The notes beneath the pieces are model-generated. The model was not told the DNA's origin. It did no database searches and saw only the letters and a list, made by a program, of their open reading frames with translations. From Candidatus Iainarchaeum sp. (GTDB taxonomy: Archaea > Iainarchaeota > Iainarchaeia > Iainarchaeales > CSSED10-239), in the NCBI GenBank assembly GCA_028700905.1, contig JAQVRT010000027.1, positions 1-10,122 on the forward strand: a DNA stretch of 10,122 nucleotides, given 5' to 3'. Of this stretch, positions 2,278-10,122 are shown one piece after another; position 1 is the first letter of the stretch; every line of letters starts with the position of its first letter. The translations under genes were made by a program, and so were the position numbers.

Positions 2278-2925
2278 TTAGTTTTTAAAAATAAGAAATT
2301 TTCTTTTTTCAAGAAAAATATTTTTTTTAAAATAAAGATATAAACCAAAAAATAATATTGAAAGACCTAAAAAATAACCAGCCAAAACATCTGTAAACCA
2401 ATGGATATTAATTATTATTCTTGAAAATCCCATAAAAATAAATAATAGTAAAGAAATAATTGAGATAAATTTGTTATTTTTATAAAACAAGAAAAAAATA
2501 AAACCAAAAAGAACAACACCCATAGTTGCATGTCCACTTGGGAAACTTAAAGTTGTAAGAAATATATTATCAGGTCTTATTCTTCCAATAATGTGTTTTA
2601 AAGAATAAACTATTAAAAGATCTAAAAAAACTAAAAAATAGAGAAGATTAATTTCTTTATGTTTATTTAATAAACTTAAATAAATAGTTAATAAAATGAC
2701 AATTATTAAAACACCGTAAACAGAGCCAATTGCAGAGATTATTTTTGCAAAAGAATAAGTAAAAGTATTTGTTAAATCAACTGTGCTACTGCTTACAAAA
2801 TTATCTAATGAATTTGTAAGATTTATTTTAAATAAAACTAATACTATTGAAAATAAAGATAAAAAAAACAGGGATACTGAAAAAAATCTATTTTTATTAG
2901 AAAAATTATTATCAATCATAAACAA
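2278..2925 (-). CDS. PAP2-family (type 2 phosphatidic acid / undecaprenyl-diphosphate-type) membrane phosphatase
   Basis: All three PAP2 signature motifs are present in order: KHIIGRIRPD (Kx6RP), FPSGHAT (PSGH), and SRIIINIHWFTD (SRx5Hx3D). They are embedded in a polytopic membrane protein. Confidence 0.8.
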   Translation of the reverse strand: MFMIDNNFSNKNRFFSVSLFFLSLFSIVLVLFKINLTNSLDNFVSSSTVDLTNTFTYSFAKIISAIGSVYGVLIIVILLTIYLSLLNKHKEINLLYFLVFLDLLIVYSLKHIIGRIRPDNIFLTTLSFPSGHATMGVVLFGFIFFLFYKNNKFISIISLLLFIFMGFSRIIINIHWFTDVLAGYFLGLSILFFGLYLYFKKNIFLEKRKFLIFKN

Positions 2926-2981
2926 ATCAATTTATTATTAAATATTATAATATTTAGAGGAAATAATTTAAATACTTTTGG

Positions 2982-2993
2982 AAAAATAAAAAA
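2982..2993 (-). terminator. Oligo-T tract immediately 3' of the tRNA gene (archaeal-type termination signal)
   Basis: The minus strand reads C-UUUUUU-A-UUUUU directly after the discriminator base of the tRNA. Confidence 0.5.
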
Positions 2994-2994
2994 G

Positions 2995-3067
2995 TGCCTC
3001 GAGCCAGATTTGAACTGGCGGTCTCCAGATTATGAGTCTGGCGCTTTAACCACTAAGCCACCGAGGC
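2995..3067 (-). tRNA. tRNA with CAU anticodon: elongator tRNA-Met, or tRNA-Ile2 if C34 is modified. No encoded CCA.
   Basis: The reverse complement folds by hand into a cloverleaf: GCCUCGG UG GCUU AGUGGUUA AAGC G CCAGA CUCAUAA UCUGG AGACC GCCAG UUCAAAU CUGGC UCGAGGC A. It has a 7-bp acceptor stem (one G-U), a 4-bp D stem, a 5-bp anticodon stem and a 5-bp T stem with a UUCAAAU loop. The anticodon is CAU and the discriminator is A. G1-C72 and the lack of a GGG/CCC anticodon stem argue against an initiator. The sequence is GC-rich against an AT-rich background. Confidence 0.92.
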
Positions 3068-3156
3068 AAAATATTTTTTAAAAAATAATGATTTTTTTAA
3101 AAAAAAGACTTATTTTACTAATATATAATTATGAAACATATAGTTTATATATATTT

Positions 3157-3855
3157 TTATTTTTGTGCAGAAACCCTATAAACAAGCATTCTCTTAGAAT
3201 TAAAAGACTGCATATAAAAAGATCTGTAATTAACAGGAATATTTTTAGTTTCAACTAAAGATACATTTACTTTTTTAAAATTATTTGAAAAAGCAGAATT
3301 AATATTTTCTAAATATTTATCCTTTGATATAAGTTCAGCTTCTCTAAAAGTATAAACAATTACTTTTCCTCCAGGTTTTAATTTTTTAGAAATTAAATCA
3401 ACTACTTTTTGAGTATATTTCTTAGACCCTGGGTTTACAATTGAGAAGACATTAAAAAATTGAATGAAATTTAAAACTTTTAAATTATTAAAATTTTTAG
3501 CTCTTGAATAAAAACCTAAAGCAAAATCACTTACAACAAGATCTAAAGAATTATTTTTAAATCTTGAAAGACCATTTACAAAATCTTCTTTATATTGTTT
3601 TAAATTTTTAGGAACTGGTTTAAATTGTCTTTTTTCTTTTAAACCGAAATTTTTAAATCTCATTGATTCATGAACATAAGATTCACTTTTTATATCTTTT
3701 AAATCAATTCCAAAAAACATAAATCCAGGAAACTTTTCAGCTAAAACTTTAGATCTAAATGCAGCATCTTCACCTACATTTCCTAAATGTACAATTTTTC
3801 TTTTTGAAGAAGTATTACTTTTTACAAATAAATTAGAACTTTTTTTTAACACCAT
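3157..3855 (-). CDS. Hypothetical protein, probable Rossmann-fold (class I SAM-dependent) methyltransferase-like
   Basis: The 232-aa ORF has MTase-like strings in canonical order: IVHLGNVGEDAA (atypical motif I, no GxGxG), FFGIDLKD (motif II-like acidic end), LDLVVSDFAL (motif IV-like), and KLKPGGKVIVYTF (the classic post-motif LKPGG). This assignment rests on motif resemblance only. Confidence 0.4.
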   Translation of the reverse strand: MVLKKSSNLFVKSNTSSKRKIVHLGNVGEDAAFRSKVLAEKFPGFMFFGIDLKDIKSESYVHESMRFKNFGLKEKRQFKPVPKNLKQYKEDFVNGLSRFKNNSLDLVVSDFALGFYSRAKNFNNLKVLNFIQFFNVFSIVNPGSKKYTQKVVDLISKKLKPGGKVIVYTFREAELISKDKYLENINSAFSNNFKKVNVSLVETKNIPVNYRSFYMQSFNSKRMLVYRVSAQK

Positions 3856-3870
3856 ATAAAGCTACCAAAA

Positions 3871-4542
3871 TTAATTTTCTCTTCTTCTAACAGAAACAGA
3901 ATCTTTTTCAGGATCATAAATAATAACAGTATCTAAAAGACCTAAAAAAACACCAGTTTCTAAAACACCAGGAATGTTTCTTACAGAATATTCAAAATCA
4001 TCTAAAGTAATATTTTTATCTAATTTTATTTTTGCAAGAAAATGACCAATCTCTGTTTTTATAAATTCAGAGTTAGAATCATAAAGAACTTGAGCTATAC
4101 CAAAACTTTGCAAATGTATGATTGTTCTTTGCCATGCAAAAGTTGAAATTTCAACACATACTTCACAATTAATCTCAGGCACATATTTTTTTGTATTTGT
4201 AAGAACTACAAGTTTTAAAGCAGATTGAGAAATCATCTTATCTCTAATAAAAGAATTTGTTTTTATTTTTATAAAATTATTATAATAATCAACTTGATCT
4301 CCAAGCTCTAAAGCAACATCAATCTCTTTATCATTTAAAGAAACAATATTCTGTTTTAAAAAACTTAAATGTTTTGATTGCTTTGAATTAACAGCCACAA
4401 AATATACTACTTTGTTTTCTTGTTCTAAATATTTAACAAGCAAAGAAATAAATTCTAAGTCTTTTGAAAAAGGAGCTATAGCTATTGTATTTTTATTATT
4501 TATTTCTTTAATAAATTCTTGAACAATTAATGATAGATTCAT
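3871..4542 (-). CDS. rpiA: Divergent ribose-5-phosphate isomerase A (RpiA)-fold protein
   Basis: The protein is collinear with RpiA along its whole length. IDVALELGDQVD aligns with the DGADE block, IKIKTNSFIRDK with the IKGGGxxxxxEK block, VCVEISTFA with PVEVIPxA, and the highly RpiA-specific C-terminal NIPGVLETGVFLGLLDTVII with IPGVVExGLF...aD.vlvg. The N-terminal GxGTGST phosphate loop is not conserved (IAIAPFSK). Confidence 0.55.
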   Translation of the reverse strand: MNLSLIVQEFIKEINNKNTIAIAPFSKDLEFISLLVKYLEQENKVVYFVAVNSKQSKHLSFLKQNIVSLNDKEIDVALELGDQVDYYNNFIKIKTNSFIRDKMISQSALKLVVLTNTKKYVPEINCEVCVEISTFAWQRTIIHLQSFGIAQVLYDSNSEFIKTEIGHFLAKIKLDKNITLDDFEYSVRNIPGVLETGVFLGLLDTVIIYDPEKDSVSVRRREN

Positions 4543-4614
4543 AACTAATGATTTATTGTTTGAAAAGTATTAAAAAGTTATGTTTTAAAAACAGAAGCAT
4601 ATAAATATATATTA

Positions 4615-4676
4615 GGCAATGATGATATTGAACACCTGCTGACTTTAAATATGATGATAGATGGGCGGGCTGAGCC
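4615..4676 (+). ncRNA. Archaeal C/D box sRNA (2'-O-methylation guide) with two guides
   Basis: The order and spacing are perfect. Terminal stem half GGC (4615-4617); C box AUGAUGA (4619-4625); 13-nt guide UAUUGAACACCUG (4626-4638); D' box CUGA (4639-4642); 8-nt loop; C' box AUGAUGA (4651-4657); 12-nt guide UAGAUGGGCGGG (4658-4669); D box CUGA (4670-4673); terminal stem half GCC (4674-4676) pairing with GGC. It lies in an intergenic gap and is followed by TTTT (4677-4680). A TTTTAAAAA TATA-like element (4583-4591) sits about 26 nt upstream. Confidence 0.85.
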
Positions 4677-4678
4677 TT

Positions 4679-4921
4679 TTATAAATCTTTTTTAGGTTTT
4701 AAAACTACTTTTTCTTTTATAACAAGATCTTTCTTATTTTCCTCTAAAAGAGATACTCTTTTATTTAAAACTTCTATCTTTGAGTTTAAGATATCAAATT
4801 TAGCATCATTTGATGAAAAATTAAAAGATCTATTTTTTCTTACAATTACATAAGATAATAAGAGATTACCTATAAAAAAAATAATTATAAAAATTATTAA
4901 AATAACTGTTAAAGCATCCAT
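4679..4921 (-). CDS. Small membrane-anchored coiled-coil protein (hypothetical), last gene of the PIN-containing operon
   Basis: The 80-aa ORF has an N-terminal TM helix (LTVILIIFIIIFFIGNLLLSYVIV) followed by a heptad-like charged helix (KFDILNSKIEVLNKRVSLLEENKKDL). A GAGGU Shine-Dalgarno site (complement of 4931-4935) lies 9 nt upstream of the ATG, 23 nt after the upstream gene. Confidence 0.6.
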   Translation of the reverse strand: MDALTVILIIFIIIFFIGNLLLSYVIVRKNRSFNFSSNDAKFDILNSKIEVLNKRVSLLEENKKDLVIKEKVVLKPKKDL

Positions 4922-4930
4922 ATCAAACTA

Positions 4931-4935
4931 ACCTC
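4931..4935 (-). promoter_or_regulatory. Shine-Dalgarno site (GAGGU) for the 80-aa membrane protein gene
   Basis: The plus strand reads acctc, so the minus strand reads GAGGU, 9 nt upstream of the ATG at 4921-4919. This is complementary to the conserved 16S 3' tail CCUCC/UCACC. Confidence 0.55.
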
Positions 4936-4944
4936 TTTTTTATT

Positions 4945-5703
4945 CTAAACAAAAATATAATTTCCTTTTCTTTTTTCAATTATTAGACCTTCTTCTTTTA
5001 AAATCTCAATTACAACTTTTAAAACTTCTTTTGAATAATTAAGTTTTAAAGAAAGAAAATCAAGAGAAAAATTTTCTTTTAAATTAAGATTAAATAAATT
5101 ATTTTTAATTTCTATAAATAAATATTTATAAATAACATAATAATTACCATCAAAAGACTTAATACCAATAATTTCTTTAGATTTTATTAATTCTTCAAAA
5201 TCAAGAGAAAACTTTTTTGCAAGATTAACATCTTTTAAAATAATATATTTATTTGTTTGAAAATCTGAAAAGTCAGAATTTTTAGATTCACTAAAATCTT
5301 TTTTAGAATTTATGTCTTTATAGTTTGAAGATTGATAAACTCCTTTCTTGTATTTAGAAGACATTTTATAGATTTCAATTTCATTATTTTTAAGCATATC
5401 TTTAAAAATTAATAAATCTTCTTTATTCAATAGCTTTTCAAAAGAACCTTCAACTTTATCTTGAAAAGTTAAAGATTTATCATTTAGTAAATGTAATATT
5501 TTTTTTTTTCTTAAATCAACAGAATCATCTTCTTTAACAGAACCCTCTTCTTTTTTAGAAAGTGATTCTTTTAAAGATATTTTTAAAAAAGAGCCTTCTT
5601 TTTCTAAAATTAAAGGTTTACCTATAAATACCTCTAAATCACTAGATTCTTCTTTTGAATCAACATTTAAAAAATAAACTTGATTTTTTTTAACAATTTT
5701 CAT
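4945..5703 (-). CDS. Hypothetical protein with C-terminal winged-helix-like segment(s)
   Basis: The 252-aa ORF has a start codon that overlaps the upstream stop as ATGA (5700-5703). Its C-terminus, SKEVLKVVIEILKEEGLIIEKRKGNYIFV, resembles a recognition helix plus beta-wing of a wHTH. Two earlier segments (ILHLLNDKSLTFQDK...NNEIEIYKMSSKYKKGVY and LAKKFSLDFEELIKSKEIIGIKSFDGNYYVI) have a similar helix-then-hairpin pattern. No confident family assignment. Confidence 0.5.
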   Translation of the reverse strand: MKIVKKNQVYFLNVDSKEESSDLEVFIGKPLILEKEGSFLKISLKESLSKKEEGSVKEDDSVDLRKKKILHLLNDKSLTFQDKVEGSFEKLLNKEDLLIFKDMLKNNEIEIYKMSSKYKKGVYQSSNYKDINSKKDFSESKNSDFSDFQTNKYIILKDVNLAKKFSLDFEELIKSKEIIGIKSFDGNYYVIYKYLFIEIKNNLFNLNLKENFSLDFLSLKLNYSKEVLKVVIEILKEEGLIIEKRKGNYIFV

Positions 5704-6368
5704 AAATTTTCAATATATTCATTAATTTCTTCAAAAGAAACTGAACATCCTTTAAACTTTAAAGCATATAAAGCGCCCTTTAAATTATTTTTATCTTTAA
5801 AAACACTTGATAACAAGCCTTTTTTATAAGCATACACTAAAAAATCTACAGATCTAATAACATTCACATTACCTATAATCTCCATAAACTTAATATATTT
5901 TTGTTCATCAATTGAAACTTTACTAGTTTTATATTTTCTTTTAAAAATTTCTAAAAGACCATGAGGTTGTTCAATAATCATTCTTGTTGTTCTTTCATCA
6001 ACTGCTAAAAAAGAAGCATCTGTAAGACCTAAAAGAGCTAAAGATTCAGCTTCTCCAATTTGAATAATTTTTATTGGATTTCCTCTAACATAAAACATAT
6101 TATTTGTAAGATACATTATTTTATTTGTAGTTTCATCTAAAGCCTTATCACTTTGATAAACATCAAAAATATGTGTTGAAATTTCTTCTTCAATTCTTGT
6201 AGAACTAAGTTTAAATCTCATAACATTTCTAACTTTATCAATACATTCAAACTTAACATTTTTAGTAATTATAAACTCTCCTAAACTCTCTTTTAAATCT
6301 TTAAATAAAGGAATAAAACAAGTTTCAGAAAAACTAATAATTACACCAGAATCAAATACTATTTTCAT
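5700..6368 (-). CDS. PIN-like nuclease domain protein (DUF3368 / COG2405-like) with an internal insertion
   Basis: The 222-aa ORF shows an N-terminal MKIVFDSGVII (acidic D6), IGEAESLAL (E106/E108), LAVDERTTR (D124), then VIRSVDFLVYAYKKGLLSS and LKGALYALKFKGCSVSFEEINEYI. These are collinear with the DUF3368 consensus as I recall it (GEAEaiaLA...lLiDDrkgR...viGtlGvLllAkkkGli...L...gfris.el). Its ATG overlaps the upstream stop as ATGA (6365-6368), and a strong AGGUGAU SD precedes it. Confidence 0.6.
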   Translation of the reverse strand: MKIVFDSGVIISFSETCFIPLFKDLKESLGEFIITKNVKFECIDKVRNVMRFKLSSTRIEEEISTHIFDVYQSDKALDETTNKIMYLTNNMFYVRGNPIKIIQIGEAESLALLGLTDASFLAVDERTTRMIIEQPHGLLEIFKRKYKTSKVSIDEQKYIKFMEIIGNVNVIRSVDFLVYAYKKGLLSSVFKDKNNLKGALYALKFKGCSVSFEEINEYIENL

Positions 6369-6952
6369 TGATTATCACCTTTATCTTTTTCAGACATTAT
6401 TTCTAAAAGATGCACTCTTTCATTTATACTTTTAAATTGATTATCTTCATCTGGCATTTTTGTAATTCCCACATAAGACATTAATTGTTCTTTTGTAATT
6501 GATAAAAGATCAGAAGATTGAGATGCAGATAAACCATAAGCATATGCAGTTGATGCAAGTTTTACTCTTCCATCATCAATAACAACACTTACATATCTTC
6601 CAAGTTCATGATCTGCTTTTTTAATTATTTCTATAATATTTTTAATATAATTATTAAATTTACTAGGATCTTCTTCTCTATAAACATTTAGTGCAGAATT
6701 TAAATTTTCAACAATTGATTTTTTATAATCTGCCCAAGAATTTGTTTGTGAAATATGTTTTTTAGAAATTATTTTTCTTAAACCATAAATCATTACACAA
6801 ATTTCTGAATAATCTTTATTAAAATTTATAATTGCTTGCTCTAAAGTATTATTCTCTATTAAATGTAAAGATTCATAATCATTTCTTTCAAGAAAAACAA
6901 TAGTAGATTTAATAATATCAGTTAATTTTAAGTTTTCAATAATTTCTTCCAT
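6365..6952 (-). CDS. Hypothetical protein: about 125-aa helical N-terminal domain plus a UPF0175-like (antitoxin-type HTH) segment and an acidic tail
   Basis: This 195-aa ORF is the first gene of the operon. The segment RVKLASTAYAYGLSASQSSDLLSITKEQLMSYVGITKM resembles the UPF0175/COG2886 pattern as I recall it (a..lY..G.iSlgkAAeLlGis+.efme.L...gi), which is the usual partner of DUF3368 PIN proteins. The N-terminal domain has no recognisable family. Confidence 0.5.
   Translation of the reverse strand: MEEIIENLKLTDIIKSTIVFLERNDYESLHLIENNTLEQAIINFNKDYSEICVMIYGLRKIISKKHISQTNSWADYKKSIVENLNSALNVYREEDPSKFNNYIKNIIEIIKKADHELGRYVSVVIDDGRVKLASTAYAYGLSASQSSDLLSITKEQLMSYVGITKMPDEDNQFKSINERVHLLEIMSEKDKGDNQ
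6374..6380 (-). promoter_or_regulatory. Shine-Dalgarno site (AGGUGAU) for the PIN-like gene, embedded in the 3' end of the upstream ORF
   Basis: The plus strand reads atcacct, so the minus strand reads AGGUGAU, 5 nt upstream of the ATG at 6368-6366. Confidence 0.6.
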
Positions 6953-7059
6953 CTTTTATCAACTCATTTAATATATTTTTTATAGATATATGTATAAATA
7001 TATAAAACAAAACATATTTATATTATTTTATATATAGATAATATTGGGTAGAATAACAT
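6953..7059. promoter_or_regulatory. Divergent promoter region with two archaeal TATA boxes, both about 28-30 nt from the respective start codons (leaderless or near-leaderless mRNAs)
   Basis: The plus-strand TTTATATA (7027-7034) matches the archaeal TTTAWATA consensus, with its centre about 29 nt before the ATG at 7060. The minus-strand TATAAAAA (complement of 6977-6984) has its centre about 28 nt before the ATG at 6952. Neither first gene has an SD, whereas internal genes do. Confidence 0.6.
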
Positions 7060-7542
7060 ATGAGTCTTTATAAAGAAAATAAATTTGATTTTTTAAAAAA
7101 TAAATATATATGGATAATTATAGGGGCTATACTTGTTCTTGCTATATTAGGTTATCTTTTAACAATGGTTAACTGGAAAGGAATGTTTGAAAAAGATAAC
7201 ATAAAAGTTAAATTTCAAAATAATCCTTTAATTGTTTCAGAAAAAGACAATACTTTAATTGAAATTACTTTAATTAACAACACAGAGAAAGATTTAGATA
7301 ATCTAGAAGTAACCATTAAAGATGTTGAAAATAATTTTGAAATATTTTGTCCAGATTCACAAGAAGATAAAACAAAAGTTATAATTCCAAAAATGGCAAG
7401 TGGTAATGAAAGAATAATTACATGTAATGTAAGGTATGATCCTACAAAAGATTTTTTTGAAGGCACATATAGTTTTGACATAGATTATTCAATTGAAGAT
7501 TATATTTATACAAAAAGAGCAAATTTAGAAGTTAGAAGGTGA
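7060..7542 (+). CDS. Membrane-anchored protein with an extracytoplasmic beta-rich (CARDB/Ig-like) domain, hypothetical
   Basis: The 160-aa ORF has an N-terminal TM anchor (IWIIIGAILVLAILGYLLTMV). An alternating beta-strand pattern follows (LIEITLINNTEKDLDNLEVTIKD...KVIIPKMASGNERIITCNVRY...GTYSFDIDYS), reminiscent of CARDB-type domains. Two Cys residues are present. Confidence 0.5.
   Translation: MSLYKENKFDFLKNKYIWIIIGAILVLAILGYLLTMVNWKGMFEKDNIKVKFQNNPLIVSEKDNTLIEITLINNTEKDLDNLEVTIKDVENNFEIFCPDSQEDKTKVIIPKMASGNERIITCNVRYDPTKDFFEGTYSFDIDYSIEDYIYTKRANLEVRR
7538..7542 (+). promoter_or_regulatory. Shine-Dalgarno site (GGUGA) for the 247-aa membrane protein gene, overlapping the upstream stop codon
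   Basis: In aaGGTGAaaccaaaATG, the GGTGA at 7538-7542 lies 7 nt upstream of the ATG at 7550. The TGA of the preceding ORF is part of the motif. Confidence 0.6.
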
Positions 7543-7549
7543 AACCAAA

Positions 7550-8293
7550 ATGATTAGTAGTGTATGGAAAGGATTTAATTTTTTTAAAAAAAAAGAATTT
7601 TTCAAAATATTTATAGCATTTTTGTTATATGGGGTTTCAACTTTCTTTTTAATAGACTATATTAATAATATAATAGATCAACTAGATTTATTATATGTTA
7701 AAACCATAAACTACCCTCAATTAATAATTAACACCTTAGGTTTTGAAATTTTATTTATTTTAGGTTCAATTTTTGTTATTCTAATAACATACATCCTACT
7801 TTCAATAACAATTGCAAATACAGAAAGTAAAAAGAAAATAAATTTTTTAGAAAAACTAAGATTAAGTTTTAAGTATTCAGTATTATTTTTCTTTATATTT
7901 TTAGCATATATAATCTTGTTTGCTATTTTAGGAAGCGTAATTAATATATTTACAATAATATTAATGATATTACTATTTTTTTCATTAATAATGGTTATAT
8001 TTATGTTCTATATTGGAAGCATGTTTATTGGAATATATAATTTAGATATTAAAATTGCTTTAGAAAAATCAAAAGACTTTTTTAAGAAAAGATTTTGGAG
8101 AACTATTGCTATTTTGATATTAATATATTTAGTAAATGAATTAATTTTTATTATTTTAGACTTCTTATATTTTAATATTTTTATATACAACACAATAGCT
8201 GCAATAATTACAATACAGATAACCTTTTTTATAGGTACAATATATGTATTAAATGCTTTAGCAATATATGTAAAATCTCAAAAATTTATATGA
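7550..8293 (+). CDS. Polytopic integral membrane protein, hypothetical (DUF975/YciC-like architecture is a guess)
   Basis: The 247-aa ORF has about 5-6 long hydrophobic segments separated by short basic loops (KKKINFLEKLRLSFK, EKSKDFFKKRFWR). It starts 7 nt after the upstream gene and has an SD. Confidence 0.55.
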   Translation: MISSVWKGFNFFKKKEFFKIFIAFLLYGVSTFFLIDYINNIIDQLDLLYVKTINYPQLIINTLGFEILFILGSIFVILITYILLSITIANTESKKKINFLEKLRLSFKYSVLFFFIFLAYIILFAILGSVINIFTIILMILLFFSLIMVIFMFYIGSMFIGIYNLDIKIALEKSKDFFKKRFWRTIAILILIYLVNELIFIILDFLYFNIFIYNTIAAIITIQITFFIGTIYVLNALAIYVKSQKFI

Positions 8294-9108: not shown

Positions 9109-10122
9109 TCTTAAACTTTACTCGAACCATTAGTATTAGAGAGCTTAAATACTCGCCCGAAGGCTTGCATCGTATACTCCTAACCTATCAAACCGGTCTT
9201 CTTCCGGAGTTCTCGTCTCGCATTTCTGCGAAAATGGCTGTCTCGTTTTAGGGTTCGCTTCGTGCTTAGATGCTTTCAGCACTTATCGAATACAGCGTAG
9301 CTACTGGGCATTGCCTTGTCAGACAACCCACACACCAGAGACTGCGACCCATCGTTCCTCTCGTACTAAACGGATCTTACCTTCAAACAACCAACACAAC
9401 CAATAGATAGGAACCAAACTGTCTCGCAACGTTCTTAACCCAGCTAATGTACGGCTTTAATGAGTGAACACCTCCACCCTTGGCTACTTGTGCACAGCCA
9501 GGATGCCGTAAGCCGACAGCGAGGTAGCAAACCGCGGGGTCGATGTGAACTCTCACCCGCGACAACCCAGTTACCCCCAGGGTAAGTTCACTGTCAGACT
9601 AGGCCCCCATAAATAGGGACACTAGCGTTCGCTAGACCCAAGTTTCCTTCCAACGTTCCGTGCTTTTAGGAACATTGTTAAGCCTGCTTTTGGTCTTGTC
9701 CTCTACGGCTGATTTCTGACCAGCCTGAGCAGACCTTTGGACGCCCCTGATATCTTTTCAGGGGCGTACCGCCCCAGTCCAACCACCCGATCAAGTGATG
9801 TCCGTCATATAGACGTAAGTTGTATTTTTCCTACTAGATGGTGTTACATTGGCGTCTGACTACTTCCTAGCGAAAGCAGCTAAAGCGACTCCCATCTACG
9901 CTCTATAGTAAAAACAATACAACAACACCAGACTGTGGTAAACCTCCGTGGGGTCTTATCCTCCCATTGGTTGTCCGTGGCTTATTCACCACGCTAAGCA
10001 AGTTCACTAAGTTAAAGTTAGGGACAGTGACGATCTCGTTACTTCCTTGGTGCAAGCCGACATTTAATCGGCAAGGTATTACGCTACCATGAGAGCCTCA
10101 GAGTTAGGCCCGCTCTTTACCA
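9108..10122 (-). rRNA. 23S (LSU) rRNA, 3' roughly 1 kb (E. coli about 1925-2904 equivalent, domains IV-VI). The 5' part lies beyond the window end.
   Basis: By-eye alignment of the reverse complement to E. coli 23S is collinear throughout. Landmarks include GAUAAGUGCUGAAAGCAUCUAAGCACGAAGC (complement of 9257-9287), the sarcin-ricin loop AGUACGAGAGGAAC (complement of 9354-9367), GCUGGGUUAAGAACGUUGCGAGACAGUUUGGUUCCUAUC, the A-loop GGAGGUGUUCACUC, GGGGGUAACUGGG...GAGAGUUCACAUCGAC, GGACUGGGGCGGUA and AAGACCCCACGGAGGUUUAC. GC content is far above the flanks. The 3' end is estimated from homology to ...ACUAAUGAACCGUGAGGCUUAACCUU, with an uncertainty of about 15 nt. Confidence 0.95.

Follow-up and report, generated by a model that had tools for sequence, protein, structure and literature searches.

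The stretch of DNA analysed here, referred to throughout as the window, comprises 10,122 nucleotides (nt) of contig JAQVRT010000027.1 from Candidatus Iainarchaeum sp. It carries a gene for a box C/D small RNA (sRNA) with two guide regions and, on the opposite strand, the 3′ third of an archaeal 23S (large subunit, LSU) ribosomal RNA (rRNA) gene that runs off the window end. One of the guides is predicted to direct 2′-O-methylation of a uridine in this same 23S rRNA, the equivalent of U2552 in Escherichia coli, and the other is aimed, with good probability, at 16S rRNA. An earlier note, made from the sequence alone, had proposed the sRNA and the first of these targets. The guanine plus cytosine (GC) content of the window is about 22%, except for a block of about 50% at 9110–10122. 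The complete 23S gene, 2984 nt long, is available at positions 2451–5434 of a 120-kb metagenomic contig (L001), which is 99.3% identical to the window region. Contig JBBISB010000002, which bears the label Candidatus Iainarchaeum, harbours a relative with 82% identity in the RpiA protein, and this places the source organism in the Iainarchaeota, a DPANN lineage.

The box C/D sRNA gene

The sRNA gene sits between the divergent rpiA gene (3871–4542, minus strand) and a convergent open reading frame (ORF) of 80 codons. Its four boxes follow one another in canonical order within a short terminal stem (Table 1), and a single unpaired A separates the GGC of the stem from box C. This full layout agrees with the sRNA call of the earlier note. 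What is expected of archaeal C/D sRNAs is present at the sequence level: a terminal stem that brings together box C near the 5′ end and box D near the 3′ end, conserved internal C′ and D′ boxes, guide spacers close to 12 nt and an overall size in the range of about 50–70 nt. Folding predicts the terminal stem only, and internal structure is not significant (z = −0.25); open guides are expected in a C/D sRNA, so the lack of a competing internal fold fits this class. The segment has a GC content of 44% in a genome of about 22%. No second C/D architecture is found in the window or in the relatives' 20-kb loci, and this is apparently the one C/D sRNA in about 30 kb of this genome (window and L001). 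On these sequence grounds, the element is a canonical archaeal box C/D sRNA gene, a member of the class without a named Rfam family.

Table 1. Coordinates of the sRNA gene, its parts and its predicted 23S target in the window
Feature	Position	Strand	Basis
Putative archaeal TATA element TTTTAAAAA, 24–32 nt upstream of the sRNA 5′ end	4583–4591	+	Read by eye
Complete box C/D sRNA gene, 62 nt (predicted)	4615–4676	+	Boxes C/D′/C′/D in canonical order
Terminal stem, 5′ half, GGC	4615–4617	+	Pairs with GCC 4674–4676 (predicted fold)
Box C, AUGAUGA	4619–4625	+	Sequence; invariant in relatives
D′ guide, 13-nt spacer; A-loop-pairing bases 4629–4637; N+5 base A4634	4626–4638	+	
Box D′, CUGA	4639–4642	+	Sequence; invariant in relatives
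D′–C′ linker, 8 nt	4643–4650	+	Length and sequence vary among relatives
Box C′, AUGAUGA	4651–4657	+	Sequence; GUGAUGA in relative L010
D guide, 12 nt, UAGAUGGGCGGG; N+5 base G4665; inferred target 16S C1402	4658–4669	+	
Box D, CUGA	4670–4673	+	Sequence; invariant in relatives
Terminal stem, 3′ half, GCC	4674–4676	+	Predicted fold; compensatory change in L133
T-runs, candidate archaeal termination signals (TTTT 4677–4680, TTTTTT 4688–4693)	4677–4693	+	Read by eye
Archaeal 23S (LSU) rRNA gene, 3′ third, runs off window end	9110–10122	−	Rfam RF02540, 886 bits
23S target site 5′-AGGUGUUCA-3′, 5′ strand and loop of helix 92 (A-loop)	9465–9473	−	Pairing, E. coli alignment
Predicted 2′-O-methylated U, E. 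coli U2552 equivalent	9470	−	N+5 rule from D′ and E. coli alignment

An A/T element like the TATA candidate TTTTAAAAA lies at equal distance from the sRNA in relatives. A second A/T motif, ATATAT at 4607–4612, is placed directly upstream of the sRNA 5′ end and is invariant in all relatives, while the remaining upstream spacer has diverged. It is too near the sRNA to be its TATA box, and could be a processing signal, an extension of the stem or part of the rpiA promoter region.

The D′ guide and the 23S A-loop

Fibrillarin methylates the ribose of the nucleotide that is paired to the fifth guide base upstream of box D′ or D (the N+5 rule). Window positions 4629–4637 (TGAACACCT) are identical to plus-strand positions 9465–9473 and, because the 23S gene is on the minus strand, the D′ guide is complementary to the rRNA sequence 5′-AGGUGUUCA-3′. 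Sequence comparison thus reproduces the nine contiguous Watson-Crick pairs described in the earlier note, which occupy guide positions 2–10 upstream of D′. A mismatch follows at position 11 and then, at position 12, an isolated pair between A4627 and the rRNA U encoded at window position 9463. The note had counted this additional A–U pair; it exists, but it lies after a mismatch and beyond the 10-nt limit of substrate pairing, and is very probably irrelevant (PMC7229835).

The CUGA of box D′ fixes the register. Given its position, the fifth base upstream is A4634, and the partner of A4634 is the rRNA U at 9470, as had been stated. An ungapped MAFFT alignment with the E. coli 23S (a reference copy of 2906 nt, in which U2552 is numbered 2554) places 9470 at the first U of the A-loop UGUUC, that is, at canonical U2552, and the assignment of the earlier note stands here too.

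Duplex prediction against the full 23S of L001, a check that the note had suggested, ranks the A-loop as the best site for the D′ guide, with −14.1 kcal/mol vs −10.6 kcal/mol for the runner-up. By contiguous pairs the A-loop is also first, and the next site has 6. No better target, which was one of the findings named there as decisive against the proposal, is present in the full 23S or in the tRNA-Met of the window. The length of at least 11 base pairs (bp) set for such a rival target is not apt, as 9–10 bp is the efficient range. C/D ribonucleoproteins pair with no more than 10 nt of substrate; duplexes of 9–10 bp are modified efficiently, and longer ones inhibit modification at lower temperature (PMC7229835). 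The duplex of 9 bp at positions 2–10 falls within this range, so its length is functionally apt. That the D′ guide directs 2′-O-methylation at the A-loop equivalent of U2552 is a well-supported prediction, much of it owed to comparison with other genomes.

Conservation and covariation of guide and target

Seven loci with RpiA proteins of 54–82% identity carry the sRNA in a syntenic position. In these loci the boxes, with one noted change (the C′ box of L010), D′ guide positions 1–10 and D guide positions 1–11 are invariant, while D′ guide positions 11–14 vary (1-nt insertions included), and so do the linker and the flanking intergenic DNA. The terminal stem of L133 shows a compensatory change, from GGC/GCC to AGC/GCU. 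The A-loop is identical in every relative locus that includes 23S; as guide and A-loop are both invariant, covariation between them is unobtainable inside the clade.

A wider view comes from a scan of 185,579 species genomes with the pattern TGATGA-N(2-6)-GAACA-N4-CTGA-N(2-14)-TGATGA, from which box D was left out. The scan returned at least 120 loci. Among the matches listed, a correctly spaced D box is present in 69 of 76 from archaea vs 1 of 44 from bacteria (Fisher p = 5e-24). The archaeal matches listed belong to Micrarchaeota, Altiarchaeota, Iainarchaeota, Undinarchaeota, Woesearchaeota/Nanoarchaeota, Methanosarcinales and Thermoproteota. In the matches listed, the tetranucleotide that separates GAACA from D′ follows lineage (ACCN, CCCN, CCUG or GACN) and is not random, as the 5′ strand of helix 92 would dictate.

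Covariation of guide and A-loop, also suggested as a check, is seen when the window guide is set against two published guides and their own A-loops, those of Nanoarchaeum equitans sR10 and Methanopyrus kandleri sR17. The pair at position 2 is U–A here and C–G in both published systems; position 4 is C–G, but A–U in sR17; position 10 is U–A, but C–G in sR17. All three guides put N+5 on the first U of UGUUC. Guided methylation of U2552 is predicted in five of seven archaea surveyed (Dennis et al. 2015, PMC4644070). The earlier description of U2552 as typically guide-directed in archaea is too broad, given this count and the RlmE/RrmJ homologue of haloarchaea (PMC2584109; PMC11542601).

The D guide and its probable target, 16S C1402

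The D guide pairs with the universal 16S decoding-site sequence ACCGCCCGUCA through eight Watson-Crick pairs and one G·U pair at positions 2–10 (−19.9 kcal/mol), as computed on E. coli and N. equitans 16S, which serve as proxies for the 16S of this organism. Its N+5 base, G4665, falls on C1402. The 16S gene is on none of the retrieved loci, so this target rests on universal 16S conservation; seven archaeal 16S sequences share the decoding-site sequence, that of the DPANN archaeon N. equitans among them.

Variation in other sRNAs keeps to the same register. In Altiarchaeota with an A-loop D′ guide, the D guide is CUGAUGGGCGAG, with A at position 2; the duplex moves to positions 3–11 and N+5 is still C1402. 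In at least 100 full C/D sRNAs from metagenomes this register is occupied by GACGGGCG, which has C at guide position 8 (scan for NNGACGGGCGNN plus CUGA after a C′ box, in which nearly all matches listed are full C/D sRNAs). Position 8 is U in the window sRNA, and both bases pair with G1405; the occurrence of either C or U at this position fits G1405 and excludes a target with A there. The signature NNGAYGGGCGNN followed by CUGA, which is complementary to 16S C1400–C1407 and has N+5 at C1402, is present here in the same register. Among the 69 archaeal sRNAs listed, 25 combine an A-loop D′ guide with a D guide that contains GAUGGGCG and is aimed at 16S C1402.

C1402 is known as a modified nucleotide. 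In E. coli it is m4Cm, made by RsmH and RsmI (PMC11551388), and C1402 and U2552 are two of the four 2′-O-methylated nucleotides (Nm) in E. coli rRNA (PMC11542601; PMC11551388). The plant equivalent of C1402 is guided by a small nucleolar RNA (snoRNA) (PMC11542601). The D guide of the window sRNA probably targets 16S C1402, as complementarity and register suggest.

Other targets for the D guide were tried. In 23S, the best Watson-Crick run is 7 nt and lies at the C′-proximal end, and the best duplex (−15.0 kcal/mol) includes three G·U pairs, one of them at N+5; a 23S target was therefore discarded. Comparison with tRNA-Met and tRNA-Glu on the loci, with E. coli 5S and with a regular expression for 5S-like sequences gave no target. 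Candidate sites in 5S loop B (CCCG..CCCAUC) and in tRNA anticodon or acceptor regions were dropped, since the C variant at position 8 fits only a G in the target. The exact complement of the D guide, CGCCCATC, occurs in the retrieved loci only as the antisense of the guides and in scattered coding matches.

Two observations concern related sRNAs. One group of full C/D sRNAs is very abundant on metagenome contigs (L136–L255); its D guide, NAGACGGGCGAN, pairs perfectly with 16S C1400–C1407 and has N+5 at C1402. These sRNAs have a GCCAC/GUGGC terminal stem and D′ guides of another kind than those for the A-loop, among them a recurrent one, AAACCCAGCU, with complementarity to 23S AGCUGGGUUU near G2581. 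In a metagenome-assembled genome (MAG) resembling Altiarchaeota (L053), a second sRNA-like element lies at about 4600–4660 on the minus strand, about 0.9 kb from the dual-guide sRNA, with the same D guide (CUGAUGGGCGAA) and an atypical D′ half.

Proposed mechanism and competing explanations

In the proposed mechanism, the sRNA would assemble with L7Ae, Nop5 and fibrillarin; L7Ae would bind the kink-turn (k-turn) and the k-loop, and a Nop5 dimer would bridge them. D′ guide positions 2–10 would pair with the loop of helix 92 and its 5′ strand in 23S and, since this helix is a hairpin, would have to do so on nascent, unfolded pre-rRNA. The first U of UGUUC would thereby be placed in the fibrillarin active site and its ribose 2′-O-methylated. 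The D guide would most likely do the same for 16S C1402 in the decoding centre. A single small RNA would in that case account for two of the four ribose methylations known from E. coli rRNA, which bacteria make with the stand-alone enzymes RlmE and RsmI. Overall, the best explanation of the locus is a C/D sRNA that guides methylation of the U2552 equivalent and, most likely, also of C1402. The likelihood of this explanation is high, and gene anatomy, complementarity, register, conservation and covariation argue for it.

Several observations weigh against this explanation. Many C/D families of Rfam match the sRNA at permissive thresholds, all of them below cut-off: the best is sR1 with 25.8 bits against a gathering threshold of 45, followed by snoPyro_CD (24.4 vs 45), and sR2 is also sub-threshold. 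These models are guide- or genus-specific, and their low scores argue against membership in the named families, not against the C/D class. The D′ spacer is 13 nt (13–14 nt in the clade), where 12 nt would be canonical. Of the 71 related sRNAs in the matches listed, 53 have a spacer of 12 nt and 18 one of 13–15 nt, and the 13-nt spacer is a mild deviation, and the sole one, from the archaeal C/D sRNA pattern. The D′ match could also arise by chance: a run of 9 or more contiguous pairs that spans N+5 is formed somewhere in this 23S by 4.4–7.3% of 13-mers, random or shuffled, and 12% of shuffles equal the duplex energy. Match length by itself is within chance; significance comes from the identity of the site and from the comparative data. 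The earlier judgement that an independent hit strongly supports the call has to be read in this light: 9 bp carry little weight at a chance level of about 5%, and the judgement holds only because the site is one of very few conserved Nm positions. For the D guide, the conserved U at position 8 would pair better with an A in another target, and no published archaeal guide for C1402 was found in the literature searched, nor is one annotated in the seven archaea of Dennis et al.

The competing account that survives best, although improbable, is that the guide acts mainly as a folding chaperone or assembly checkpoint for rRNA, while U2552 is methylated redundantly or exclusively by an enzyme of the RlmE/FtsJ type. 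Some archaea, Haloferax volcanii among them, carry an RlmE homologue for U2552 (PMC2584109; PMC11542601), and the possibility of such an enzyme here also counts against the guided methylation proposed above. Yeast uses the guide snR52 plus Spb1 (PMC11542601), and N. equitans sR13 has been suggested to act as an sRNA-based checkpoint on 16S (PMC5389701). The departure of the D′ spacer from the 12-nt optimum might likewise reflect a role other than methylation. However, the exact N+5 register is kept across phyla, though pairing alone would allow shifts, and the boxes needed for the placement of fibrillarin are invariant. No RlmE/FtsJ gene is present in the roughly 30 kb visible (window and L001), which is too little of the genome to be informative.

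Less probable still, and quite unlikely in absolute terms, is a real sRNA whose A-loop match is coincidental and whose true D′ target is another RNA (16S, tRNA or mRNA) outside the window. The chance levels given above allow for this, with about 5% of random guides reaching 9 pairs and 12% of shuffles the duplex energy, and the target scan in this organism's own RNAs was confined to 23S and a few tRNAs. Against coincidence, the match falls on one functionally conserved Nm site among 2984 positions, and guide positions 1–10 and the A-loop are both invariant across the clade. The same register recurs with lineage-matched flanks in at least 69 archaeal genomes, and the published A-loop guides share it, with compensatory changes.

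That the box-like motifs and the 9-mer are no gene but chance features of AT-rich intergenic DNA has next to no probability: it draws on the absence of an Rfam family above threshold, and the conservation pattern effectively refutes it, as the 62 nt are nearly invariant vs diverging flanks and the stem changes in a compensatory way, while four boxes, both spacers and the terminal stem stand in canonical order in a GC-enriched segment.

Relation to known guides and enzymes

The closest published counterpart is N. equitans sR10, likewise a C/D sRNA of a DPANN archaeon with an A-loop D′ guide (Randau 2012; Dennis et al. 2015, PMC4644070). Its D′ guide, AGUGAACACCCU plus CUGA, has GAACA in the same register, with N+5 at the U2552 equivalent and a duplex at positions 2–11. 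In contrast to the window sRNA, sR10 belongs to a hyperthermophile that has 26 sRNAs; the D′ spacer measures 12 nt instead of 13, and the guide flanks fit an A-loop of GGGGGUGUUCACCC vs GGAGGUGUUCACUC here. The D guide of sR10, AAAAUCCACACA, bears no relation to that of the window sRNA, and its annotated target is a second site in 23S and not 16S C1402. M. kandleri sR17 also keeps the U2552 register with its D′ guide, AGCGAACAACCG plus CUGA, but has a degenerate box C (GAUGAAGA), flanks that fit GGGGUUGUUCGCCC and another D guide (Dennis et al. 2015, supplement). It is well-supported that the window sRNA is an ordinary member of this known archaeal guide class, working like sR10.

The same two guides as in the window are joined in dual-guide sRNAs of Altiarchaeales IMC4_SM1 (L130), Candidatus Iainarchaeum (L054) and Candidatus ainarchaeum (L021 and L120). 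The dual-guide sRNAs of Altiarchaeota differ in their A-loop flank, ACCN. In the literature searched, no description of the dual-guide sRNAs of Altiarchaeota and Iainarchaeota was found, and no paper joins C/D sRNAs with mesophilic DPANN archaea. Two aspects of the present sRNA therefore appear to be undescribed: its occurrence in a mesophilic, AT-rich DPANN archaeon, and the linkage of U2552 and C1402 guides in one RNA.

In eukaryotes, yeast snR52 (25S Um2921) and the Arabidopsis guide for 18S Cm1645 share the chemistry, the N+5 rule and the two nucleotides (PMC11542601). They differ in being separate, longer RNAs for each site with degenerate C′ and D′ boxes, and in yeast Spb1 makes Um2921 as well. 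The C1402 equivalent is served by the C/D snoRNAs snR70 in yeast and SNORD43 in human, which belong to the same group. Bacterial RlmE (FtsJ/RrmJ) and RsmI yield the same products, Um2552 and the 2′-O-methyl group of m4Cm1402, but they are protein-only enzymes that recognise folded subunits without a guide RNA.

Guided methylation of the A-loop U2552 is already documented in archaea, and the core finding confirms an expected function. What it adds is that one sRNA with guides for two of the four E. coli Nm sites (C1402 probably) offers a candidate for the smallest set of methylations in archaea with reduced genomes; both sites are guide-methylated in eukaryotes as well. It is conceivable, though rather doubtful, that in Iainarchaeota and Altiarchaeota one dual-guide sRNA of about 60 nt is the only source of Um2552 and Cm1402 and replaces RlmE and RsmI. 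RNA-guided rRNA methylation would then be reduced here to a minimal and perhaps ancestral core, with both subunits served by one RNA in genome-reduced mesophilic archaea, and interest in the locus would be somewhat higher if the sRNA were indeed the sole route to both conserved methylations. For the annotation of MAGs, the signature TGATGA-N(3-5)-GAACA-N4-CTGA, a short linker and TGATGA-NNGAYGGGCGNN-CTGA can be used.

In Micrarchaeota (L012, L014, L022, L040, L049 and others), the A-loop D′ guide is joined to another D guide, GGYUGAUAGCGU, whose partner in the Iainarchaeote 23S is UCGCUGUCGGCU. The N+5 of this D guide is the U2504 equivalent, about 48 nt upstream of U2552, in the U2504 region of the peptidyl-transferase centre. 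The Iainarchaeote 23S has C at the position of E. coli A2503 (window 9519, rRNA strand; CCUCGCUGUCGG vs CCUCGAUGUCGG). E. coli and the seven archaea in the alignment of Dennis et al. have A at this nucleotide, which lies at the entrance of the peptidyl-transferase centre and exit tunnel. All Iainarchaeote 23S sequences compared share the C (L001, L007, L008, L010, L095, L133 and L134 in addition to the window), which rules out an assembly error. Opposite the A2503 position, the D guide of Micrarchaeota has G, which implies C there too.

Genomic setting

At gathering thresholds, 23S rRNA and tRNA are the sole credible Rfam matches in the window. A further match, to RF04354 (Plastid-ycf2 5′UTR) at 2994–3067 on the plus strand, has a score equal to its gathering threshold; it corresponds to the antisense strand of the tRNA-Met (CAU) gene, which is encoded on the minus strand, and is almost certainly a model artefact. 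The 23S gene is flanked by protein genes on both sides and is unlinked from 16S and 5S (window 9110–10122, L001 2451–5434).

Adjoining the sRNA and rpiA, a cluster of small proteins of about 160, 195, 222, 250 and 70–80 amino acids is encoded at 4945–8293. These proteins have no solid Pfam assignment, only faint matches to DUF3368 and HTH_11, and the order of the cluster is strictly syntenic across the Iainarchaeota relatives (L007, L008, L010, L133, L134 and L135).

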